Source: a virus
DNA: 32,139 nucleotides
Reading direction: 5' to 3' (one strand)
Virus record (IMG/VR): IMGVR_UViG_3300045988_095662
Coordinates: 1 to 32,139 of that record
A program made the translations under genes and the position numbers. Positions 787 through 32,139 of the stretch are shown here, one piece after another. Under the pieces are notes generated by a model. The model ran no database searches. It worked only from the letters and a program-made list of their open reading frames with translations, and was not told the DNA's origin. Every line of letters begins with the position of its first letter. Position 1 is the stretch's first letter.

Positions 787-1785
787 TTAGTTGAGCGTCG
801 CCGTCTCGCCGCTCACGTTCGCCTGAGCGACGGTTACGGTCTCGCTAGAAAGTGCAGTGCGTCTGTTGGTGGGCATGTACGCCGTTTCGCCAAGGACTAT
901 GTAGCCGTCCTGTAGCTCCACAAGCGCCGTCGCAAGCGTCGCGTTCTCTTCGCGCAGCTCTTGCACCTCGTCATCTGAGGGCGGCTCGATAGAAGCGATA
1001 GAGTTTGCGATGTTAAGCGCGTTCTGCGCAGCGGCGGTGGCATCCTCCGCCGCGCCGTTTGCCGCAGCAGCGGCGGCGTTGGCGCTTGAAGCGGCAGTGT
1101 TCGCCGCGCTCGCGGCGGCGTTGGCGTTGGATGTTGCCGCGTCGGCGTTCTGCTTGGCGGTGTTGGCGGCTGATGCCGCGTTGTTCGCAGCCGTGGTTGC
1201 AGCGTCGGCGTTCTGCTTGGCGGTGTTCGCCGCCGAAGCTGCGCTTGTCGCCGAAGCTGCGGCATCGTTTGCAGCCTTCGCGGCGTTGGTCGCGCTCGTA
1301 GCAGCCGAGTTCGCCTTGCTCGCGGCGCTGTTCGCCGCGCTGGCCGCGCTGTTGGCTGAGCTTACGGCCTGATTGCCACGGTTGATGAGGTCTTGCACGG
1401 CATCGTCCCAGTTCTGCGAGGGCTGCTGCCCGTCAAGAGCGCTGCGCAGGATTTCGATTGCGAAGCGCTCCGTCGAATAGGTATTGCCGCTCTTCGTGAT
1501 CGTGAAATAGGCTTCGTCGGTGTAGCCGGACACGCTGCAAAGCTTGGATTCGTCAACCGTGATCGTGGCGGCGTTGCCGCTCACCGAGCACTGGCCGCGA
1601 TAGTAGTTGCGCTTGTTCGGCAGAAGCACGACAAGCCATGCGGTAGCGCCTGAAAGCGAGAACTCAGCGCCGTTGTCGTAGATAAGCGCCTTGATTGTGG
1701 TTCCGCCATTGTCGCCCTGACCAACCTTGACGCAGGTTCCCGCACCTTCTTTCGAAATATCGAGTTCAAGCGTTCTGGTGTTCAT
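787..1785 (-). CDS. BppU-like baseplate upper / tail fibre protein with an Ala-rich coiled-coil repeat region
   Basis: 332-aa ORF. The N-terminus resembles BppU N-domains (MNTRTLELDISKEG...). The centre is an A/S/N-rich heptad-like repeat containing a 63-bp tandem duplication. Position is the distal tail module. Confidence 0.7.
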   Translation of the reverse strand: MNTRTLELDISKEGAGTCVKVGQGDNGGTTIKALIYDNGAEFSLSGATAWLVVLLPNKRNYYRGQCSVSGNAATITVDESKLCSVSGYTDEAYFTITKSGNTYSTERFAIEILRSALDGQQPSQNWDDAVQDLINRGNQAVSSANSAASAANSAASKANSAATSATNAAKAANDAAASATSAASAANTAKQNADAATTAANNAASAANTAKQNADAATSNANAAASAANTAASSANAAAAAANGAAEDATAAAQNALNIANSIASIEPPSDDEVQELREENATLATALVELQDGYIVLGETAYMPTNRRTALSSETVTVAQANVSGETATLN

Positions 1786-18947: not shown

Positions 18948-20126
18948 CTAACCCGCCGCGCGGCGCTTCGCTTCGCTGAAGAGCTGAGCTGCCGCCGCGT
19001 CGCGTCCGGGCATCAGGTGGCCGTAGATTCGAAGCGTCGTTGCTTCGTCCGCGTGCCCCATGCGCTCAGATAGCGTCTTCAGGTCGCAGCCGTTGGCGAT
19101 AAGCCACGAAGCGTGCGTGTGCCGCAAGCTGTGAAACGTGATCTCTCGCGGCAGTCCGCATGCGTCTCGTATGCGGCTGAAAGCCCGTGAAATCGTCGTT
19201 GGGCGCATGTAAGAGCCGTCTAGCGTCACCAGCGGGCAATCAGCGCCCAAGCGCCCCAGAACGTCGCTCTGAAGCTTCGTGAAGGCATCAATAACCGCGA
19301 TATCGTCTTGCGTAAGCGCGATGTTGCGGCACTTGCGGCCTTTTGTCACGTTGCGGCGATAGGGCTTCTTGCCCTTGCCCTCAATGACGTTGCCGCCGAC
19401 GTGGACGTAAGACATGGCGCGCTTAACGTCGATGCGCTGCACCGCGCAGACCTCGCCAACGCGCATTCCGGTAACGAGCGACAGCCACGAAGCGAAGGCG
19501 TAGACGGCGGCGCGGTAATCGGCTTTCGTCTCAATCTCCTTGCTAAGCGCGCCCTCTAGCTTCCCGTTGAAGCCCTCGAAGTCCCATTCGGTGAGCGCCG
19601 AAGCTTCGTGCCGTTCCGGCGATGGTTTGGCGACGTACACCAGCGGGTTAGCGTCGCAAATGCCAGCGTCTACGAAGTGGTTATAAGCGCCGCGCAAGAA
19701 GTTGTGGACGTTGATAACGCTGTTGCGGCAAAGACCTTGCCCGCCTTCATCCTTCGCCATGAGCAAGCGTTGCTCAAAGCGGTTGAAGTCCATAACGCCA
19801 AGATCGCGTGCGTTTGCGGTCTTCAGATAACGTGCGACGTAGCGGCAAAACAGCCGATAGCTCTTAATGCTGTTCGGGCTTGCGCCGTTGCGCTCCCTCA
19901 GTTGCACGTAATCTTCGAGCAAATCGGTCAAGCGGTCGCTTCTAACCGTTCCGTCAGCCGTCACGTAAGCCGCCCACGTCTCAGCGAGGGCTTGCGCTTC
20001 CTCTTCGGTTGCCGCATTCGGAAACCGCTTGTAAGGGCGAATCGCCTTGCCGTCGATGCTGCGCCCAAGGTACAACCGGCACTCGAAAACGCCATCTGCA
20101 CCGCGCTTGACCTTAACGCCCATCAT
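18948..20126 (-). CDS. Tyrosine recombinase / phage integrase family
   Basis: C-terminal catalytic region ...RVGE...HSLRHTHASWL...GHADEATTLRIYGHL. ATGA overlap with the upstream small ORF. Confidence 0.9.
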   Translation of the reverse strand: MMGVKVKRGADGVFECRLYLGRSIDGKAIRPYKRFPNAATEEEAQALAETWAAYVTADGTVRSDRLTDLLEDYVQLRERNGASPNSIKSYRLFCRYVARYLKTANARDLGVMDFNRFEQRLLMAKDEGGQGLCRNSVINVHNFLRGAYNHFVDAGICDANPLVYVAKPSPERHEASALTEWDFEGFNGKLEGALSKEIETKADYRAAVYAFASWLSLVTGMRVGEVCAVQRIDVKRAMSYVHVGGNVIEGKGKKPYRRNVTKGRKCRNIALTQDDIAVIDAFTKLQSDVLGRLGADCPLVTLDGSYMRPTTISRAFSRIRDACGLPREITFHSLRHTHASWLIANGCDLKTLSERMGHADEATTLRIYGHLMPGRDAAAAQLFSEAKRRAAG

Positions 20127-20344
20127 GACCACTCGCAGTTTTCACGAATCCGCGAAGGGCAGTTATCGTCGTGGCAGTCCGCGCAATCCAACTGCTCTTT
20201 CCTGATGTGGAACTCAACGATTCGGTACTTCAGAGAAAATCGGATGAGCAGCAGCAGGGCATGAGCAAGCGAGTTGGTAAATTGACCGTCCCAGAACGGG
20301 CAAAGTCCGCTCATCGCGCCGCGAACCTCGTACTTGCCGCCCAT
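20123..20344 (-). CDS. Small Cys/His-rich hypothetical protein (73 aa)
   Basis: The ATG lies 1 nt after the upstream stop, and the stop overlaps the recombinase start. Contains CADCHDDNC...C. Confidence 0.45.
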   Translation of the reverse strand: MGGKYEVRGAMSGLCPFWDGQFTNSLAHALLLLIRFSLKYRIVEFHIRKEQLDCADCHDDNCPSRIRENCEWS

Positions 20345-24254: not shown

Positions 24255-25190
24255 GTGAATAGACTTGAAAAGCTTCGGGCAATCAGCCCAAGCGACATTC
24301 TTATTTTCGATACCGAAACAACGGGTCTTAATGTCGGCGGCTCGCGCCGTGATGAAATACTGTCACTCGCTGTCATGAATCTTGACGGAGACGTTCTGTT
24401 TTGCGATCTATTGAGGCCATCAGAACGCAAAAAGTGGCCGAAAGCAGAAAGCATAAACGGCATATCTCCGTCTATGGTGAAGGACAAGAAGACGATTATA
24501 GAAAGGCGCTCGGAAATCGAACCGATTTTCAAGAGCGCTAAGCTATACGTCGCATACAATGCCGATTTCGACCTAGGCTTTCTTAGAGCTTCCGGTTTGG
24601 ATATACCAGATCGTCAGACGTTTGACGTGATGAAAGAGTTTGCGAAGATACATGGGGCATGGGACGGCACGCATGATGAATGGTCATGGTGCAAGTTAGA
24701 AGATTGCGCGGCGTTTTACGGATATCGTAACTTCGAAGCTCACGACGCGCTGAACGACGTTAAGGCAACCGCGCATTGCTTCAATTCGATTCTCGATGAT
24801 TTTCTTTTCGGTGAGCCGCGCCGCCGACCGAAGCTGGTTAAGGATGAGTTCGGCGATTCGTATTTCGAGTATGGCGACGAAGAGTTTAGAAGCATCGTTT
24901 GCAGCGGTTATGCTGCCGCATTGTCCGAAACTGGCAAACACACTAACTACGCGCCATCATCTAACGAGCTTCAGCAGCAAGCCAAGGATGAAAAAGACAG
25001 TGCAGATAACCAACCGGCCAGAAACCATGCCGTGTCAGATCAGCGGAGCACCAATAAAGCACTGGTGTTAATCGGTTCCGTTTGCGCATTGATTGGTCTT
25101 GCAATCACTGTTTTAGGTGCTGCAATCGTCGGTGTTCCAATTGCTATATTGGGCGCTTTGCTTGCCGTAGGTGCAAGGGGAAGGAAATAG
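24255..25190 (+). CDS. DEDDh (DnaQ-like) 3'-5' exonuclease fused to a C-terminal double-TM anchor
   Basis: ExoI FDTETTG, ExoII AYNADFD, ExoIII HDALNDV. The C-terminal ~40 aa are hydrophobic (ALVLIGSVCALIGLAITVLGAAIVGVPIAILGALLAVGA). GTG start. Confidence 0.8.
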   Translation: MNRLEKLRAISPSDILIFDTETTGLNVGGSRRDEILSLAVMNLDGDVLFCDLLRPSERKKWPKAESINGISPSMVKDKKTIIERRSEIEPIFKSAKLYVAYNADFDLGFLRASGLDIPDRQTFDVMKEFAKIHGAWDGTHDEWSWCKLEDCAAFYGYRNFEAHDALNDVKATAHCFNSILDDFLFGEPRRRPKLVKDEFGDSYFEYGDEEFRSIVCSGYAAALSETGKHTNYAPSSNELQQQAKDEKDSADNQPARNHAVSDQRSTNKALVLIGSVCALIGLAITVLGAAIVGVPIAILGALLAVGARGRK

Positions 25191-25282
25191 AAAACCCTGC
25201 GCGGCTTCTTGGCGGTCGGCGCGCAGGGCAAGTGCAAAGAACGAAGCGCATTAGCGCACTCGCTCTAAGGGGTGATTTTAGC

Positions 25283-26860
25283 ATGGTGAAGAACAGAGCA
25301 GCCATATACGCGCGCTTCAGCTCGCACAATCAGCGCTCTGAGAGTATCGAGATACAAGTTGAGAACTCGCGCGCATACTGCGAGCGCGAGGGCTTGCAGG
25401 TCGTGCGGGAATACTGCGACTATGCGCAGACAGGGCGCAACGTCAACCGCGCTGAGTTCCAGCGCATGATGAACGATGCGAAGCTAGGTCTATTTGATTT
25501 TGTGGTGATTTACAAGGTGACGCGCATAATGCGCAACCGCGATGAAATGGCCTTGGCTCGAATCATGCTGCGCAAGGCCGGTGTTGAAATACTGTACGCG
25601 GGCGAAGAGATCGCGAGCGGTTCGAGCGGTGTGCTGCAACTCGGCATGCTCGAAGTTCTCGCGGAATGGGAAAGCGCTATCGACAGTGAGCGCATAAGAG
25701 ACGGAATCCAGAAGAACGCCGCTCGGTGCCTTGCTAACGGGCATTCGCTATACGGTTGGGATATCGTAGACGGTCGTTATAGCGTCAATGAGCGCGAAGC
25801 GGCGCTTATGCGCAAGATGAAGAACATGCTGTTTTCCGGCCATTCGGTAGCCGATATCGTGCGGGCGCTCGAAGGTGAGAAGACACGCAATGGAAAGCCC
25901 TTCAACCAAGACAAGGTGACTAAGCTTCTGCGAAGGGTGCAGAACGGCGGAACATATAGCTATGCCGGTCATGTGGTAGAAGGTGGGATGCCGGGTCTTT
26001 GGCCGCAAGTAGAACAAGACATGATAGAAAGCGTCCTTAACGACAGGCACCGCCCGCGCCGCAAGGTAGATTCGTCTAAAGAGTTTCCGCTTTCCGGCAA
26101 ACTCTACTGCACGAAATGCGGTATGCCAATGGCGGGAATGAGTGGAACATCTAAGACAGGCAAAGCCTATCACTACTACCGTTGCCGCAAGTGCAGAAGA
26201 ACAGTGCGCCGTGATCTGATAGAAGATGCCGTAGTAGATATGACGCTGCAAGCCGTTGCGCGCGACGATGTGCGACAGCGGATAGCGCAAGGAATGGCGC
26301 TCTACCAATCAGAGCAAGAAGAGACGAAGCCAGAAAGCTACTATCTGAAGAAAGAGCTTAGGCGCATTGATGCGGCGTTCGAACGCATCTGGCAAGCGAT
26401 AGAAGATGGGATTGCACCACCGGGCGGAAAAGAGCGCACGGACGAACTGAAGTGCCGCAAAGCGGAAATCGAAGCGCAGCTGCGCATAGCAGAGCGCGAC
26501 GAATCTATGTCGTTTGGCGTTGACGAACTCATGCTGTGGCTCGATGAGATCGCAACGGAACTAACGCCGCTCGATATCCTCAACAAGTTTGTTCGGTTCG
26601 CTGAGATTGACGGCAAGAGCAACCGCATACGCGTTTACTTTGCCTTCGATAAGCACGGTGACGGCTTTTCGCCTAACAGCGCGGACAAAGGCGAACACCT
26701 CTATGAAGAGAGGTGTTCGCCTAATTCTACGCTGGTGGAGCTTATGAGAAAAACGGCGAACTCCACAAGCACCGCCAACCGCGCAGCTATCCAGCTTGAT
26801 ACTTGCATCGTTAGGGTATCGAAAAACTGGTTTGTTGTCGTTGGCACGTGTCAAAAATAG
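25283..26860 (+). CDS. Large serine recombinase (probable phage integrase)
   Basis: N-terminal resolvase domain (AAIYARFSSHNQ...). Zinc-ribbon Cys pairs (CTKCG...CRKC). C-terminal coiled coil. AAGGGGTG lies upstream of ATG 25283. Confidence 0.9.
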   Translation: MVKNRAAIYARFSSHNQRSESIEIQVENSRAYCEREGLQVVREYCDYAQTGRNVNRAEFQRMMNDAKLGLFDFVVIYKVTRIMRNRDEMALARIMLRKAGVEILYAGEEIASGSSGVLQLGMLEVLAEWESAIDSERIRDGIQKNAARCLANGHSLYGWDIVDGRYSVNEREAALMRKMKNMLFSGHSVADIVRALEGEKTRNGKPFNQDKVTKLLRRVQNGGTYSYAGHVVEGGMPGLWPQVEQDMIESVLNDRHRPRRKVDSSKEFPLSGKLYCTKCGMPMAGMSGTSKTGKAYHYYRCRKCRRTVRRDLIEDAVVDMTLQAVARDDVRQRIAQGMALYQSEQEETKPESYYLKKELRRIDAAFERIWQAIEDGIAPPGGKERTDELKCRKAEIEAQLRIAERDESMSFGVDELMLWLDEIATELTPLDILNKFVRFAEIDGKSNRIRVYFAFDKHGDGFSPNSADKGEHLYEERCSPNSTLVELMRKTANSTSTANRAAIQLDTCIVRVSKNWFVVVGTCQK

Positions 26861-26960: not shown

Positions 26961-28025
26961 CTAATAAGAAAGCTTCTGGCCGGGGTAGATCGTATAAGGT
27001 GCCCCAATGCCGTTCTTGCTTGCGATGGTGTGCCAGTCGATACCGAGCGAAGCGCCAATCTCGCTGAGCGTGTCGCCGCTCTTGACGGTGTAGACGCGCG
27101 CAGCGCCAACGCCCGCCCTCTGGTTGACGATTGCCTGAACCTCGCTGAAGCGGTCGCCCAGAACGTCGCTGCGCGTCGGCACAACGCCGAACATTCCGCG
27201 TTCCACATCATCTGCGAGCTGAGAAGCGGAAGCGCCGTCAATGTAGTTGATGAGGTCTTGCACCTCTTGGTAACGGTCGCCGAGCTTTTCGCGGCGCTCA
27301 TCGTCAACGCCATACTCGCCGCGCATGACCGCTGCTGCAAGGTCAAGCGTCGTGCCCTCCGGCGAAGGCTCGGCGACCTCTGCGGGCGGAACGTCGGGCG
27401 CTGCCGCGCCGGACGGGTTGGCAAACTTACCCCACGCTTCGCGCGTCATATAGGCGATATCGAGATCAAGCGGCGCGTTGAAGCCATCGAGACGGCCATT
27501 CGACGTGTACTGGTGGATTGCGCAGCTACCCCAAGCGCCAAAGCCGCCATCGGGAAGCCACGGCGAAGACTGGTAGCCGGTTCGGTTGTTGTTGGCGTAC
27601 TGCGCAACCCAGAGCGCGTGATTCGGCGCGATCTGAGACCAATCCTCTTCGGTGCAAACGCTACGGCTCATGTAGACGATGCAGCGAACGCCGGTCTGAT
27701 CGTAGACGTAATCGAGGAACTGCTTTGCCTTGTCGGTTCCGATGCGCCCGTACATCTCATAATCGAGAACGGGAATGCCGTTGCCGAAGTAGTTACGGCA
27801 GCTTGCGACGAAGTGCTTAGCCTGAGCGATGGGGTCTTCTCCGTTCATGAAGTGATAGAAGCCCCAGAGCTTGCCGAGCTTGATAGCCTGCTGAATCCAC
27901 GGGTCGCAGGTGTTGTGAACGATGGTGGTTCCCTCGGTCGCCTTGCAGATAACGAAATCGCAAGGCACCTGCGCGAGGTCAAGCCCTCGCTGGTAGTTGG
28001 AAATATCAATGCCGTTGAGTGCCAT
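26961..28025 (-). CDS. Endolysin: GH25 muramidase + CW_7 (Cpl-7-like) repeats + LysM
   Basis: N-terminus GIDISNYQ...DFVICKATEG typical of GH25. Two ~40-aa repeats of the form RGEYG..ERR..LGDRY..VQ. C-terminal YTVKSGDTLSEIG...IYPGQKL (LysM). Confidence 0.9.
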   Translation of the reverse strand: MALNGIDISNYQRGLDLAQVPCDFVICKATEGTTIVHNTCDPWIQQAIKLGKLWGFYHFMNGEDPIAQAKHFVASCRNYFGNGIPVLDYEMYGRIGTDKAKQFLDYVYDQTGVRCIVYMSRSVCTEEDWSQIAPNHALWVAQYANNNRTGYQSSPWLPDGGFGAWGSCAIHQYTSNGRLDGFNAPLDLDIAYMTREAWGKFANPSGAAAPDVPPAEVAEPSPEGTTLDLAAAVMRGEYGVDDERREKLGDRYQEVQDLINYIDGASASQLADDVERGMFGVVPTRSDVLGDRFSEVQAIVNQRAGVGAARVYTVKSGDTLSEIGASLGIDWHTIASKNGIGAPYTIYPGQKLSY

Positions 28026-28716
28026 AGAAGCCCCCTCTGATGCAGTAGAAGTAATGAAAATCGACCTGCTCTAGCTCTTCGAGCGTGAAGGCGCGCGCGG
28101 AGTTCCCAGCGCTCGCCGGGTCGCGTATCCAGTAGCCGTCATCGTCGGCGCGCCAGATAAGCACGACGTGCCCGCCGTAGTCCCTATCGCCGAGCGTTCC
28201 GCTCATGCCAGCGAAGGCAAGCCACCCATCGGACACGTTTTGAAGGACGGGTGCGAGATCGTAAGAAATCGGCGTGCTCTCGATGCCGTATTCCGGGTAA
28301 TGCTCGGCAATCCACGCGCAGAACTTGCCGGGGTCGTTAACGCCATCGGTAAGGCACGTGTCACCCACGAACGATGCGAGCGTGAGCGGCGTAATGTCCT
28401 GAAGCGTCATGTATTTGACAGCCATAGCGGCGCATGTAAGGCCGCAGCCGTGGTAGCCGATGGTGCCGCCCGCATATGGTATGTAGTCCCATTGCGGGTC
28501 GGTCTGAAGCCATATCGGCATGCTGTTACCCTCGGCAATCGGCCTATCGGCAACGATTGCTAGGCGGTCTTCCTCAGCGGCAGCGTAGCCCTCTTCGCGC
28601 GCTTCAGCGAGCGCGCCCGCGTCGCTCTCGATATGGCCAACGATGAGCCAGCCGCAGAAGAGCATTGACGCGAGCGCGCCGGAAAGCACGAGGGCGACAG
28701 CCTTTAGCCTACTCAT
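28006..28716 (-). CDS. Signal-anchored papain-like (peptidase C39-like) cysteine peptidase, probable second lytic enzyme
   Basis: N-terminal TM segment (AVALVLSGALASMLFCGWLIV). GCGLTCAAMA catalytic-Cys context and a downstream GGH. It lies between the holin and the GH25 lysin. Confidence 0.65.
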   Translation of the reverse strand: MSRLKAVALVLSGALASMLFCGWLIVGHIESDAGALAEAREEGYAAAEEDRLAIVADRPIAEGNSMPIWLQTDPQWDYIPYAGGTIGYHGCGLTCAAMAVKYMTLQDITPLTLASFVGDTCLTDGVNDPGKFCAWIAEHYPEYGIESTPISYDLAPVLQNVSDGWLAFAGMSGTLGDRDYGGHVVLIWRADDDGYWIRDPASAGNSARAFTLEELEQVDFHYFYCIRGGFYGTQRH

Positions 28717-28969
28717 CGCGCTTCGGCTCGGTGTAGGTGAGCGCTTGCGCGGAATCGCCAACGCCCGCCGTGGTCGGGTCGGTCACGATGCCAAGAATCG
28801 CGAGCACGGCGAAAAGCGCGTTGATGATCGCGGCCAACTGCTCGTTCAGAACTCCAAAGTCCCACTGGTAGCCGAACGGCGCGGCGACCACCTGCACGAG
28901 CAGCAGGACGGCGGGAATGAGAGTAAGCCAGAACGTCTTGTTCTTGATTCGTGCAGTGAAGTTAATCAT
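28709..28969 (-). CDS. Holin
   Basis: 86 aa with AAGGAG 7 nt upstream of the ATG. Two hydrophobic helices and a charged C-terminus. It is immediately upstream of the lytic enzymes. Confidence 0.75.
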   Translation of the reverse strand: MINFTARIKNKTFWLTLIPAVLLLVQVVAAPFGYQWDFGVLNEQLAAIINALFAVLAILGIVTDPTTAGVGDSAQALTYTEPKRDE

Positions 28970-28970
28970 T

Positions 28971-29417
28971 TCAGTTCTCCTTTTCATAGATGAGGTCTAC
29001 GCGGTCGTAGATGTGATCGACCTTGTTTGCCATGTCGTGCGAGTGCTCGCGCGATTCCCTGATTTCGTCGTGCAGCGCCGCCGTGGAAGCCCTGATAGAT
29101 TCCATAGCTGCTTGCAGCCCTTCCGAAATGTTGTTGCTACGCTCCATCTGCGCAGCGATGCGGCCTTCCATTTCCGAGCGCTCGCGGTCGCGCTGCGCGC
29201 GCTCGTTGAGTTCGTCGCGCTTACGCTCTTCGCGCTTCAGCTCTAGCTCTGCCTGTCGCGCTGCGTTTCGCTCTTCAAGCTCCGCCTTGCGCTCGTTGTT
29301 GCGCTGGTACTCGTTAAGCAACTGCTTTGCGAGGATTCCGAAGCCGATAGCAACGAGGAACGCGAAGAACCATTCGGCACCGAAGGCCGCTGCATGGTCT
29401 AAAACGCTCTCCGCCAC
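28971..29417 (-). CDS. Membrane-anchored coiled-coil protein (lysis-module accessory)
   Basis: GTG start after GGAGGG. N-terminal TM segment followed by a long E/R/K-rich helix. Confidence 0.5.
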   Translation of the reverse strand: MAESVLDHAAAFGAEWFFAFLVAIGFGILAKQLLNEYQRNNERKAELEERNAARQAELELKREERKRDELNERAQRDRERSEMEGRIAAQMERSNNISEGLQAAMESIRASTAALHDEIRESREHSHDMANKVDHIYDRVDLIYEKEN

Positions 29418-29418
29418 G

Positions 29419-29865
29419 TCAGCCCTCCGTCACCTCTCGCCAGACGGTTTCGGTTCCGACAGCCCCCGGCTCCCAGACGTTGTTAGCAACGAGGGATTCC
29501 CAGACCTTGCCGTTGTGCTTCACGCGGGCACCGAGCGGGTAGGGATTCGTAGAATCGGGCTGCACCCATTCGGGCACTTCCTCTGTCGGCGTGTCGGGCG
29601 TGCCCGCTTCAAGCACCTTCGCCCAAAGGCTCGGCGCTGCCGTTGGTGCCCAATCGGTCTGCGACGTGTGCGCCTGAAGGCAAACGTAAATCTCGCCCTC
29701 ATAGCTCGCGCGCTCGCCCTCGGCGTAGGCGTGGCCGTTGCCGTCCCACGCGGCGAAGAGCGCGGCGGCTCGGCTCGCCACGTCGGTTGAGAGAGACGGC
29801 GCTTGTGTCTTGTAAATCGCGATGATCGCGCGCACCATGCTCTCTTCGTCTTCGGTGAGTGCCAT
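29419..29865 (-). CDS. Protein with two CBM5/12-like carbohydrate-binding repeats
   Basis: Two aromatic-spaced repeats: W..G..Y..GE...Y.G..Y.C...H.S...W.P....SLW and Y.LG..V.H.GKVW.S...N.WEPG. Confidence 0.55.
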   Translation of the reverse strand: MALTEDEESMVRAIIAIYKTQAPSLSTDVASRAAALFAAWDGNGHAYAEGERASYEGEIYVCLQAHTSQTDWAPTAAPSLWAKVLEAGTPDTPTEEVPEWVQPDSTNPYPLGARVKHNGKVWESLVANNVWEPGAVGTETVWREVTEG

Positions 29866-29890
29866 TTGTTGCCCCTTTCTCTCAGTAACG

Positions 29891-29916
29891 AAAAAGCCCC
29901 CGCGTCTGCGAGGGCT
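29891..29916 (-). terminator. Rho-independent terminator closing the DGR cassette
   Basis: On the minus strand, AGCCCUCGC-AGAC-GCGGGGGCU is followed by UUUUCGUU. It lies 28 nt after the RT stop. Confidence 0.75.
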
Positions 29917-29943
29917 TTGGTACCTGATGGTGTGTGTTCGCTC

Positions 29944-31053
29944 TTAGCTGAAGAGCTGCTTATAGAGCGCGTCCATGCGCCTTACCGTCTCGTGAGCGTC
30001 AAGCCGCTTCATGCCTCCGCGCCACGATTGGTAAGACTGGTTGACTTGCTCGACGGTCATAACGCCGCGAGCGACCAGCGCCGCTTGCTTCTTCAGCTTG
30101 CGCCGCTGTCGCGTCACGGAAGAGCGGCAAGGGCGAACAACCACCTTTTCACCCTCGCCATATGAAAACCTCTTCTTCAGGAACACGAAGCCGCGCGACA
30201 GCTTCACTACGCGCGTCTTCTTGCGGTTGATGATGATTCCCAGATCGTCGCAGAGCGCTTCGATGCGCGAAAGCGCGTCCCAAAGCGTCTGCTTGTCAAG
30301 CGCGATGCAATAGCTATCGTCCATGTAGCGACCGCTCGCGAGGATGCCCGGAAGCGAAAGCATCAGATGGTCTATCGGCGACGGCAAGGCCACCGCTAAA
30401 ATCTGGTTCGGCTCGCTGCCAAGACCAAGCCCGCGCGCGCCGTGAGCGTCTATCTGGTCGCCCATGACGCGCTTAACGCGCTCATCGTCAATGGCTCTGT
30501 CGATGATGCGCTTGCAAGCGTCGTGGTCGATGTTCGCGAAATAGTCCGAGAAATCGACCTGCAAGATGTAGCCTTCCGTCCCGTGCTTTCGCCGGTGGGC
30601 TACAAGCTGACGCTTCATGCGCTTGATTGCGTACTCGGTGCCGCGCCCCTTCACGTTTGCGGCGCATCCCTCTGTCAGGGTAGGCCAGATCGCAGGTGCG
30701 AGCGCGTGACGGCTTAAAGACTTCTGTATGACACGCTCCGAGAAGTGGACAGAGCAGATATGACGAAGCTTTCCGCGCTCGAAAAGGTCAAACTCGATGA
30801 AGCCGCGCCGGAAGTCAGCGCCCGTGAGCAGGTCGCGGCGCGCCCGCATGATGTTTGGCATGACGCGCCCCATGTAGCGCTGAACGCTTGCCTTCCAGCG
30901 AACGCCCGCAGCAGCGCCGTTCGCCGCACTGTATAGGTTATCGAGGTCTGCGACGGCTTCTAGCGTGCATCCTTCGATGCGCCTAGCCCTATTCTCCGCG
31001 CGCTTGGCATCTCGCCTTGCGCGGCGTGCTGCGCGTCGCTCTTCAGAGTTCAT
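29944..31053 (-). CDS. DGR reverse transcriptase (369 aa)
   Basis: YMDD box encoded at 30327->30316. Also LQVDFSDYF and other RT palm motifs. Start chosen at ATG 31053 (MNSEERR...) because the longer ORF would run through the spacer toward TR. Confidence 0.92.
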   Translation of the reverse strand: MNSEERRAARRARRDAKRAENRARRIEGCTLEAVADLDNLYSAANGAAAGVRWKASVQRYMGRVMPNIMRARRDLLTGADFRRGFIEFDLFERGKLRHICSVHFSERVIQKSLSRHALAPAIWPTLTEGCAANVKGRGTEYAIKRMKRQLVAHRRKHGTEGYILQVDFSDYFANIDHDACKRIIDRAIDDERVKRVMGDQIDAHGARGLGLGSEPNQILAVALPSPIDHLMLSLPGILASGRYMDDSYCIALDKQTLWDALSRIEALCDDLGIIINRKKTRVVKLSRGFVFLKKRFSYGEGEKVVVRPCRSSVTRQRRKLKKQAALVARGVMTVEQVNQSYQSWRGGMKRLDAHETVRRMDALYKQLFS

Positions 31054-31421
31054 GAGGGCACCCCGCGCGGCTTGCAGTCGGCATCCAGCAGCCGCTTGAC
31101 GGTTGACCATGAAACGCGGTCGGAAGCCGAGAACCGCGCCATGCAAGCAGCGAACGGCAACCGTCGCGGGGTGCATATTTACGGGCGCATGCCCGATGGT
31201 CGCCCCTTCCTTCCTCAAATGCACGGCGCGCGGCGCTTACGGCCGCGCGGTCTGGCAAAGCTTGGGAATCACGGCAGCGGGCGTATCCAGTCGTTCGTCG
31301 GCGCGTTGTTGTTGGCATTGCCGTTGTTGTTGACATTGCACGCGTTGGACGCAGAACCACCCATGACAGACCGCAGCCACCAATTGACGCGACGATTTCC
31401 AAGGGACAACTCGCGAACATT
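31054..31421 (-). ncRNA. DGR template RNA region (TR plus 5' and 3' flanks / spacer)
   Basis: Non-coding stretch between avd and the RT. It holds TR and a GC-rich spacer with an 8-bp hairpin (31227..31249). Confidence 0.6.
31265..31393 (-). repeat. DGR template repeat (TR), 129 bp
   Basis: Aligns without gaps to 31920..32048 (offset 655). It is adenine-rich on the minus strand, with 11 AAY codons in the VR frame. Confidence 0.92.
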
Positions 31422-31832
31422 TTACCCCTTTCCTATGAGTTTCACTCCAGCGCGAGCGCCCTTTATCAGCTTAATGTCGCTGTCGATTCGGTCTAGGATT
31501 CCTTCGAGCCGCGCGGCCTTGATGGGAAGCCCCATAGTCAGAAGGCTTTGCATGTCTTGGTAGAGATGGTTTAGGTCTGCCAGCGCAAGCGTCATGTAGC
31601 GCTTCCGCTCATCGACGTTGCGCGGCGTGTTCGGATAGAATGCGTCGGCCTTAACCAGATTGAAGACAACGCTTCGCGCCGTCTCTGCCATAGGCACCGC
31701 GAAGATGAATCGGTAGGATTTCGGAACGTCGCGCGACGTTACAAGGCGCGTCACGTCGTTTCTGATCGCAACCGCCGTGTTGAAATACTCGAAAGAGCTT
31801 AGGTTGCGGTTGCGCATGTATACGCCGCTCAC
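31422..31832 (-). CDS. avd: Accessory variability determinant (Avd-like four-helix-bundle protein)
   Basis: 136-aa helical basic protein between the target gene and TR. AGGAGG lies 9 nt upstream of GTG 31832. Size and position match Avd. Confidence 0.75.
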   Translation of the reverse strand: MSGVYMRNRNLSSFEYFNTAVAIRNDVTRLVTSRDVPKSYRFIFAVPMAETARSVVFNLVKADAFYPNTPRNVDERKRYMTLALADLNHLYQDMQSLLTMGLPIKAARLEGILDRIDSDIKLIKGARAGVKLIGKG

Positions 31833-31862
31833 TTCGCGGAACCTCCTAATCTGCGACGGTTA

Positions 31863-31885
31863 GGCGCATGCGCAAGGCATGCGCC
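31863..31885 (-). promoter_or_regulatory. GC-rich hairpin downstream of VR (candidate DGR target-recognition cruciform)
   Basis: ggcgcatgc (31863..31871), 5-nt loop, gcatgcgcc (31877..31885). It lies 23 nt after the target stop codon. Confidence 0.6.
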
Positions 31886-31908
31886 AGCGCGGTACTGTGT
31901 ACGGCTTA

Positions 31909-32139
31909 TCAGCCTATGAGGAAGCACGGCAGCGGGCGTACCCAGCGGTCCGCCGGCGCGGTGTGGTTGGCAGTGCCGTTGCTGCCGACAGGGCACGCGC
32001 CGGACGCAGAACCACCCATGACAGACCGCAGCCACCAAATGACGCGACCGCCCGCGATGCGGCTTGCCGTGTCGCTGAAGATGGGGAACTGGCTATCGAA
32101 GCCGACAGAGTAGCCCTTGGTTCCCCATACCGGACAGCC
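31909..32139 (-). CDS. DGR target protein, C-terminal part including VR (32041..32139 duplicates 1..99)
   Basis: The frame is continuous with 1..771. Hand translation: ...GGRVIWWLRSVMGGSASGACPVGSNGTANHTAPADRWVRPLPCFLIG, with stop TGA at 31911..31909. Confidence 0.85.
   Translation of the reverse strand, partial: GCPVWGTKGYSVGFDSQFPIFSDTASRIAGGRVIWWLRSVMGGSASGACPVGSNGTANHTAPADRWVRPLPCFLIG
31920..32048 (-). repeat. DGR variable repeat (VR), 129 bp, codons ~255-298 of the 300-codon target
   Basis: 17 mismatches to TR, 16 of them at TR adenines on the minus strand. Confidence 0.92.
32041..32139. repeat. Terminal direct repeat, copy 2 (identical to 1..99)
   Basis: Direct comparison. Confidence 0.97.

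Follow-up and report, generated by a model that had tools for sequence, protein, structure and literature searches.

Does the minus-strand region at the end of a 32,139-nucleotide (nt) viral contig (IMG/VR record IMGVR_UViG_3300045988_095662, positions 1 to 32,139; hereafter "the window") encode a working diversity-generating retroelement (DGR), and if so, which protein does it diversify? A reading made from the letters of the sequence (the sequence-only reading) had proposed a complete cassette in the order target-avd-template repeat (TR)-reverse transcriptase (RT), as in Bordetella phage BPP-1, with a variable repeat (VR) inside the target gene. All the elements that it listed are present, at the coordinates it gave or within 2-3 nt of them, and the mapped parts bear out the BPP-1 order. 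We are highly confident that this is a canonical, active DGR of layout target-avd-TR-RT, carried by a temperate siphovirus-type phage of Coriobacteriia, which diversifies the C-terminus of a DUF6273 protein. The core parts, all of them on the minus strand like the rest of the DGR, are these:

31920..32048, minus strand: variable repeat (VR), 129 nt, codons 255-298 of the target, containing the hypervariable columns seen at the protein level
31265..31393, minus strand: template repeat (TR), 129 nt with 28 adenines, mostly in AAC/AAT codons
1..771, minus strand: 5' part of the target gene, with its ATG at 771-769; positions 1-99 duplicate 32041-32139
31909..32139, minus strand: 3' part of the target gene, including the VR, with a TGA stop at 31911-31909
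31422..31832, minus strand: Avd-like accessory protein, 136 amino acids (aa), isoelectric point (pI) 9.98, between VR and TR
29944..31053, minus strand: reverse transcriptase of the DGR, 369 aa; its YMDD box is residues 243-246 (30327 to 30316)

The TR and VR form a 129-nt direct repeat pair with 87% identity. Read on the minus strand, the 17 mismatches between them comprise nine A>G, six A>C, one A>T and one G>C, so that TR adenines, which are only 28 of the 129 bases, host 16 of the 17 (hypergeometric P ~4e-12). This recount upholds the adenine bias claimed earlier, with the correction that one of the 16 adenine sites, TR position 125 (A in the TR, C in the VR), is a fixed difference and not a product of mutagenesis (see below). 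The single non-adenine difference, a G>C at window position 31947 (VR position 102), falls in the first base of codon 289, where GAC in the TR corresponds to CGC in the VR (Asp to Arg), an arginine that is unique at this place among 45 close homologues; it arose by point mutation or else by a rare misincorporation at a base other than adenine. The TR, when read in the frame of the VR, ends in TGA and lies 211 nt upstream of the RT start; it is non-coding and adjoins the RT gene, while the VR occupies the 3' end of a protein-coding target, which is the arrangement that is looked for in a DGR. A 125-aa open reading frame (ORF) over the TR and the spacer was rejected, the region being that of the RT-2 RNA described below, in line with the earlier statement that the TR belongs to no convincing ORF. 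Scanning both strands of the window for copies that match the TR at its non-adenine positions revealed no second VR.

The target gene is interrupted in the window as deposited. The terminal 99 nt of the window are identical at both ends (1-99 = 32041-32139), from which it follows that the contig is circular, with a unit of 32,040 bp, and the gene spans its junction. Reconstructed across that junction, the ORF has exactly 300 codons, running from the ATG at 771 to position 1 (= 32041-32139) and on to the TGA at 31911-31909, and both the length and the placing of the VR agree with what had been read before. The span of 29944-32139 given to the cassette contains the parts as stated but omits the 5' two-thirds of the target, because the gene runs off the end of the window. 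Residues 142-294 match DUF6273 (PF19789; 37.2-37.8 bits against a gathering cut-off of 23.5, E 3.5e-9), and the score climbs to 47.8 bits when the TR-encoded sequence takes the place of the VR. Since this "germline" version outscores the real VR, the DUF6273 model has absorbed the Asn-rich template consensus of DGR targets. Homologues of the target in Collinsella, Olsenella and Adlercreutzia carry the same DUF6273 annotation, and its fold matches in BFVD are other DUF6273 phage proteins. DUF6273 has been modelled as a C-type-lectin-like DGR target with the VR at the C-terminus of the domain (PMC10743442, PMC11792537); the C-type-lectin fold is not confirmed here, because our structural model is poor across the VR and has no fold match in the PDB. 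The outcome of the element is best explained as a combinatorial reshuffling of about 17 codons of the DUF6273 domain, which forms the C-terminal part of this 300-aa protein. As a side observation, several of the 90%-identity clusters of the target have hundreds of members (e.g. 531, 574 and 790), and those of Avd are mostly singletons; this contrast is what one would expect a hypervariable protein to leave in public data.

What this protein does for the phage is suggested by its neighbours, the nearest of which is the following:

787..1785, minus strand: BppU_N-domain baseplate/fibre protein (Pfam and PHROG matches), directly upstream of the target

In baseplates of the TP901-1 type, the slot after BppU holds the receptor-binding protein (BppL). 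The element most likely diversifies host-receptor recognition, with the target as the receptor-binding tip of the tail, because the target stands in that slot, after Dit, Tal and BppU, and because two proteins of relatives, P0174 (510 aa) and P0184 (470 aa), are single-chain fusions of BppU_N and DUF6273 (76-82% identical over 91% of the target query), which would tie the target physically to the baseplate. The sequence-only reading had reached the same view of the target from its position; gene order and the fusions support it well, and we infer it from them. One may also consider an alternative in which the DGR is real and its target is not the receptor-binding tip, being instead another virion-surface adhesin (for instance a decoration that binds mucus or glycans, in the manner of the "tentaclins" or of Hoc-like DGR targets) or a protein with a non-receptor function. 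DUF6273 is indeed also found in non-fibre DGR targets of gut phages (PMC10743442). Neither a fold nor a ligand is established for the target here, and a separate CBM_5_12 protein encoded just after the RT means that other carbohydrate-binding modules are nearby. We nevertheless consider this alternative unlikely, given that the Dit-Tal-BppU-target order matches the BppL slot as generally known from such baseplates, that BppU_N and DUF6273 occur as single proteins in relatives, and that Ig-like repeats are absent from the target.

If the target is a tail tip under diversification, the next question is whether the diversification is still going on. In place of read mapping, we used public assemblies as a proxy for variation in the population. 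A scan for relatives, taking one genome per species, gave 79 loci that encode RT homologues with 36-99% identity, from Collinsella, Gordonibacter sp. An230, Olsenella, Lachnospiraceae, Gastranaerophilales, Treponema and others, and 66 of the 79 have an adenine-biased TR/VR pair in an identical VR-avd-TR-RT layout. In 45 public homologues that have 80% identity or more to the target, the VR columns with high entropy are exactly the TR codons that have A at position 1 or 2, the remaining columns of the VR protein being essentially invariant. In 12 close loci, lineage-specific non-adenine substitutions in the TR are mirrored in the cognate VR, and this mirroring shows that sequence passes from TR to VR. 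The exact Avd-like protein of the window has no record in public contigs, and we therefore used a 99%-identical variant (P0002), which is encoded by ten contigs from different samples; together with the window these make a set of 11 near-identical phages, with flanks about 98-99% identical. All 11 VRs are distinct, and polymorphic columns are found at 27 of the 28 TR adenines versus 6 of the 101 other positions. At one locus (L083), where the TR is identical and the flanks are about 99% identical, the VR differs at 18 of 129 positions, and in general the VR diverges from its nearest relatives by 13-17%, compared with about 2% in the flanks. Judged by this proxy, variation in the VR is confined to template-A positions, where the earlier reading had placed it, and mutagenic retrohoming appears to be ongoing. 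With the recount of the adenines and the RT matches given below, the cassette withstands, to the extent that these data allow, all three refuting tests that the sequence-only reading had set for itself.

The same comparisons bear on the possibility that the DGR is frozen or decayed, i.e. that its parts are recognisable, retrohoming has ceased and the differences between VR and TR are old. Activity in the window itself is known only indirectly, and the lone G>C in the VR could be ordinary drift. However, the RT ORF is intact, with its YMDD and template-contact residues conserved, the TR is almost invariant among close relatives in which every VR is distinct, the VR has diverged several-fold beyond its flanks (the 13-17% and 2% given above), and lineage-specific TR substitutions have been copied to cognate VRs. 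We thus regard a frozen element as very improbable, and the reading of the DGR as active is the one that we follow here.

The RT itself matches RVT_1 (Pfam) and, over its full length, phrog_1423 (211.9 bits). Its best PDB sequence match, end to end, is the 328-aa RT of entries 8ub7-8ube (8ub7_A, E 1.5e-12), which corresponds to BPP-1 Brt, the next match being a partial one to a group II maturase (3.5e-5); among solved structures, the RT of the window is therefore nearest to the Bordetella RT (bRT). BLASTP aligns it to the brt product of BPP-1 over 335 residues with 25% identity (E 1e-18). In bRT, contacts with the template base and the incoming deoxynucleotide have been reported for F66, R74, I76, I181, G182 and Q187, and these align to F88, R97, I99, L211, G212 and Q217 of the window RT, with only I181 replaced (by L). 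Models for group II, retron, defence-associated (DRT) and abortive-infection (Abi) RTs in NCBIfam and PADLOC all score far under their cut-offs (group II RT-maturase 54.7 of 300 bits, retron St85 20.8 of 235, Drt2 22 of 390; PADLOC generic hits only, 60 bits or less), and Rfam finds no intron or retron RNA in the window, RT-2 being its sole hit. These matches, and the adenine-biased TR/VR pairs at homologous loci, place the RT in the DGR clade, as had been claimed in preference to group II introns or retrons. The view that the RT comes from a retroelement of a different kind or from a defence system (group II intron, retron, DRT or Abi), with the TR and VR an unrelated partial gene duplication, can point to weak generic hits (group II maturase at 54.7 bits, retron St85, Drt2/3a/5, PADLOC UG classes), and is effectively refuted by those sub-cut-off scores, by the full-length match to 8ub7, by the lack of intron RNA domains in Rfam, and by the fact that neither the placing of 16 of the 17 differences on adenines nor the recurrence in 66 of the 79 loci is to be expected of a chance duplication.

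An ORF of 426 aa starting at a GTG was rejected for the RT, as homologues align from the ATG at 31053. The gene is followed by the terminator that the sequence-only reading had noted there:

29886..29918, minus strand: terminator-like hairpin and U-tract after the RT gene, 11-bp stem, loop AGAC, z = -4.9 versus shuffles

Folding (29918 to 29886) recovers this hairpin strongly, while a simple terminator scan reported no site at the 3' end of the RT gene, probably since some of the T run is taken up into the stem.

The protein between the two repeats was more difficult to assign. Its gene has a GTG start with AGGAGG 8 nt upstream, and searches of Pfam, PHROGs, NCBIfam, PADLOC and PDB sequences gave no match, for which reason we turned to comparison of folds. 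An AlphaFold2 model built with 30 homologues is confident, with four long helices and a predicted local distance difference test score (pLDDT) of 88.5. Its eight best fold matches in the PDB (Foldseek) belong without exception to the entries 2gsc and 2rld, with template-modelling scores (TMt) of 0.90 and 0.85, respectively, 2rld having been deposited as a member of the S23 ribosomal protein family; the Bordetella Avd (bAvd, 4dwl_C) aligns with TMt 0.80, a root-mean-square deviation (rmsd) of 2.4 Å and probability 0.99, and rmsd is 1.8-2.4 and TMt 0.80-0.90 across 4dwl, 2gsc and 2rld. The pI of 9.98 compares with 9.55 for bAvd, and published Avds have a mean pI of 9.5 +/- 0.7 and genes that are "very poorly conserved" (PMC5758913). 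An nr entry 99% identical to the protein bears a name of the form "Avd-like ... retroelement protein". In predicted fold, size, charge and position the protein is thus what one expects of an Avd, and we take it to be one; the earlier assignment stands on these four counts, and the search of 31422..31832 against the Avd/23S rRNA intervening-sequence protein family did not add sequence-family membership to them.

Where does the transferred segment end? The 3' end of the VR and the region after it contain two candidate signals:

31925..31938, minus strand: A-free GC-rich 14-mer CGCCCGCTGCCGTG, a core at the VR's 3' end that resembles the initiation of mutagenic homing (IMH) element; the fixed C comes next, at 31924
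31863..31885, minus strand: GC-rich hairpin GGCGCATGC-CTTGC-GCATGCGCC, 9 bp, 34 nt past the VR, a candidate target-recognition hairpin or cruciform

TR position 125 (31269) is A and its VR counterpart (31924) is C in 24 of 24 close sequences, and the same pair, TGATTC in the TR and TGCTTC in the VR, recurs in nearly all RT-homologue loci with a TR/VR pair, across several phyla (L002-L078). In the VR frame this is a TGA stop in the TR versus the invariant codon TGC of Cys296 in the VR. These sequences point to a fixed donor/recipient difference that does not originate in mutagenesis. By its likeness to the (GC)14 element of BPP-1 (PMC3240598), we infer that CGCCCGCTGCCGTG with the fixed A/C may be the equivalent of IMH/IMH* of BPP-1, in which case transfer would end, on the 3' side, inside the 14-mer or ahead of it. 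BPP-1 has also been shown to require a hairpin or cruciform after its VR (PMC3240598). Here, the 93-nt region that holds the hairpin folds with z = -2.6. Thirteen close loci with differing flanks have the hairpin unchanged, and 39 of 43 loci contain, in the 110 nt that follow the VR, a perfect stem 7 bp or more in length, versus 4 of 43 for a control region; the sequences of these stems vary between loci. Both 3' cis elements of a DGR, the IMH-like end and the downstream hairpin, thus appear to be present.

In the interval that separates the TR from the RT gene, the sequence-only reading had described a GC-rich spacer of about 210 nt. The spacer is there, and it can now be named as a known family of structured RNA:

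31264 to 31054, minus strand: spacer, 211 nt between TR and RT gene
31038..31260, minus strand: RT-2 RNA (Rfam RF03077), 100.5 bits versus a gathering threshold of 40, model positions 1-222 of 222
31227..31249, minus strand: candidate Avd-binding stem-loop just after the TR, 9 bp with one bulged C and a GUAA tetraloop
31260..31268, minus strand: TR 3' tail UUCCCAAGC, 5' strand of a TR:spacer helix, right after the fixed A125
31211..31219, minus strand: spacer segment UUUGAGGAA, which supplies the 3' strand of that helix; the next base, at 31210, is an invariant G

All 16 related loci that were tested have RT-2 in the same place, upstream of the RT gene (L002, L007, L013, L014, L017, L022, L024, L033, L034, L036, L044, L049, L053, L054, L063 and L069), and it always lies between an adenine-biased TR and a DGR RT. 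The paper that defined the RT motifs linked RT-10 alone to a DGR (that of BPP-1), speculated that the others play a part in DGRs and gave no function for RT-2 (Weinberg et al. 2017, PMC5737381), and our literature search found no later functional assignment for RT-2. Stem-loops that bind Avd have been reported downstream of many TRs (bioRxiv 10.1101/2023.10.23.563531), and the one at 31249 to 31227 resembles them, which makes it a candidate for such an element; it is not significant by energy alone (z = -0.6), and a hairpin after the TR is retained between loci while the sequences of its stem differ.

The nine bases of UUCCCAAGC can pair with UUUGAGGAA, the A at 31211 pairing with the U at 31268. 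Over 23 diverse loci, 75.4% of the cells of this nine-pair helix are paired, versus 45-59% when the partner is slid along, and 40 cells have changed on both sides, versus 17 +/- 3.7 in shuffles (none of 500 shuffles reaches 40), with compensatory changes at 6 of the 9 pairs. The distal duplexes, taken without their UUCC:GGAA core, have on average -4.39 kcal/mol for cognate partners versus -2.30 for non-cognate ones (P = 4e-7). RNAalifold predicted no structure for the TR tail and spacer as aligned by MAFFT; since that alignment is not structure-aware, we relied on explicit pair counting and duplex energies instead. In other words, a conserved, purine-rich, single-stranded segment of RT-2 (GGAAG) covaries with the TR tail, which falls outside the Rfam model. 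In BPP-1, TR118-121 pairs with spacer positions Sp53-56, and cDNA is primed from Sp A56 (followed by G57) and starts at TR G117. By analogy, the spacer A at 31211, opposite U31268 and next to the fixed A at 31269, would be the candidate priming adenosine. We can extend this to a proposal that we hold to be evenly balanced between true and false: that RT-2 is a cis-priming scaffold RNA, with A31211 as the primer, and that the TR base A31269 is the first template base or a discriminator of donor from recipient, which the VR (always C at this place) never inherits, in a large DGR clade that is mostly from the gut.

Put together along the lines of BPP-1, the transcript across avd, the TR and the RT-2 spacer would fold, and the RT with the basic four-helix-bundle Avd-like protein would copy the TR to cDNA, misincorporating opposite template adenines. 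Priming would probably be in cis, with the TR 3' tail (UUCC...) paired to the spacer segment that ends in GGAA and is followed by G, which would bring a spacer adenosine beside the first template base. The cDNA would then replace the VR, a step for which the support here is its outcome, a sequence pattern; the A/C difference fixed between TR and VR, which comes right behind the A-free GC-rich 14-mer, would lie outside the transferred part, and the conserved GC-rich hairpin 34 nt downstream of the VR would mark the recipient site.

Several observations weigh against this account of an active DGR and its parts. Activity is judged from differences between assemblies, and one of the VR differences, the G>C, is not at a template adenine. 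In the RT, the motif LGSEPNQ stands where bRT has IGSLTSQ, a serine being replaced by asparagine. The Avd-like protein of the window has no hit to the Pfam families bAvd or 23S_rRNA_IVP, only 2 of 42 distant homologues hit 23S_rRNA_IVP and 2 of 42 bAvd, and hhalign of the 42-sequence profile against bAvd gives a probability of 0.2; the same profile, searched against the PDB, finds designed or generic helical proteins only, and Foldseek gives its helical-bundle matches weak E-values, 1.3e-3 at best. The AlphaFold2 model of the target has a pLDDT below 50 across the VR, and both Foldseek of that model against the PDB and a profile search of PDB sequences returned noise only, with no fold match. 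Finally, the controls for covariation in the TR:spacer helix remove the relatedness of the loci only in part.

It is instructive to set the cassette beside systems that are already known. In the scheme where an avd-TR-RT core as in BPP-1 is called architecture B, the most common type (PMC5758913), the gene order places our cassette in that class. With the BPP-1 DGR it shares the order mtd-avd-TR-brt, a VR at the 3' end of a tail-associated target, adenine-specific differences between TR and VR, an accessory protein that is basic, about 130 aa long and of Avd fold (predicted in our case), an RT that aligns over its full length with template- and dNTP-contact residues conserved, a GC-rich A-free stretch followed by donor/recipient differences at the 3' end of the repeat, a GC-rich hairpin after the VR, and a spacer segment that can pair with the TR 3' tail (Sp A56-G57 in BPP-1, GGAA followed by G here). 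In contrast, the spacer RNA belongs to family RT-10 in BPP-1 (PMC5737381) and to RT-2 here, the target is Mtd in BPP-1 and a 300-aa DUF6273 protein here, the BPP-1 hairpin lies about 4 nt past the VR with a 4-nt GRNA loop (34 nt and a 5-nt CTTGC loop here), BPP-1 has several IMH/IMH* differences where we see a single fixed A/C, the Avd sequences have no detectable similarity, and our phage is of siphovirus type with a BppU baseplate and a Gram-positive actinobacterial host.

Closer in target are the DGRs of the Faecalibacterium prophages Lelie, CP11, Roos and Pioen and of the gut phages nd4 and nd12, which are likewise temperate gut phages whose cassettes have avd and whose DUF6273 targets have a C-terminal VR (PMC11792537, PMC10743442). 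They differ in having Bacillota hosts, and several of them have two targets or "tentaclin" architectures with Ig domains, whereas the present Coriobacteriia phage has one 300-aa target directly after a BppU_N protein. As for the accessory protein, it resembles the Avd/23S rRNA intervening-sequence protein family (4dwl, 2gsc, 2rld) in predicted fold, length, basic charge and position between target and TR, and differs from it in lacking a significant sequence-profile match.

The rest of the window fits a temperate phage. By PHROG and Pfam matches it has a complete gene set of the temperate siphovirus type, in which large terminase, portal, major head, major tail, tape measure, Dit, Tal and BppU_N proteins are followed by the target, and a CBM_5_12 protein, holin, C39-like peptidase and GH25-CW_7-LysM endolysin are encoded downstream of the RT. 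Near-identical cassettes are present in Collinsella and Gordonibacter genomes, also on contigs of ~32 kb, and the GC content is about 59%; a megablast of the cassette against the INPHARED phage collection gave no match. Going by its genes and these relatives, this is a temperate siphovirus-type phage of ~32 kb from gut Coriobacteriia (Collinsella-type and relatives).

Some neighbouring genes deserve mention in their own right:

18948-20132, minus strand: tyrosine integrase (phrog_1, E 9.5e-50)
25082-26860, plus strand: large serine recombinase (phrog_95, E 1.1e-87)
29419-29865, minus strand: 148-aa protein with two CBM_5_12 modules, between the RT terminator and the holin
28971-29417, minus strand: charged 148-aa protein without a family match, after the CBM_5_12 protein
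28006-28761, minus strand: C39-like peptidase-domain protein, 251 aa, whose N-terminus has a hydrophobic segment; its neighbours are the holin and the GH25-CW_7-LysM endolysin, one on either side

Two different integration enzymes, the tyrosine integrase and the large serine recombinase, are thus found in one 32-kb phage. The latter is located within a plus-strand block of lower GC content (0.52 versus about 0.60), beside a DNA-polymerase-exonuclease-like gene (24255-25190), and this block may be a separate insertion or module. The CBM_5_12 protein and the charged protein after it may have a part in adhesion or an accessory one in lysis, and the C39-like peptidase-domain protein could be an additional enzyme of lysis.

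Known DGRs number in the tens of thousands and abound in gut phages, so that the locus holds little that is new for the field: the DUF6273 target domain had been described before from DGRs of gut phages, and the cassette is a textbook member of a familiar system. What it adds is modest, namely the identity of the spacer as RT-2 RNA, the fixed single-nucleotide difference between donor and recipient, and comparative evidence in favour of a BPP-1-like duplex between TR and spacer. For annotation, the circular 32-kb contig can be labelled as a temperate Collinsella-type phage that diversifies a tail-tip DUF6273 protein. The cassette is compact, with all of its cis elements mapped, and it is open to experimental study because its near relatives are prophages of cultured Collinsella aerofaciens isolates (L007, L009, L013 and L022). 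The orphan RT-2 RNA family is offered a functional home, and the priming duplex between TR and spacer gains comparative support in a DGR clade distant from BPP-1. If RT-2 is indeed a cis-priming scaffold, the priming mechanism of BPP-1 would extend to a second, unrelated-looking family of spacer RNA, and one nucleotide would set the direction of transfer in the RT-2 clade of DGRs.

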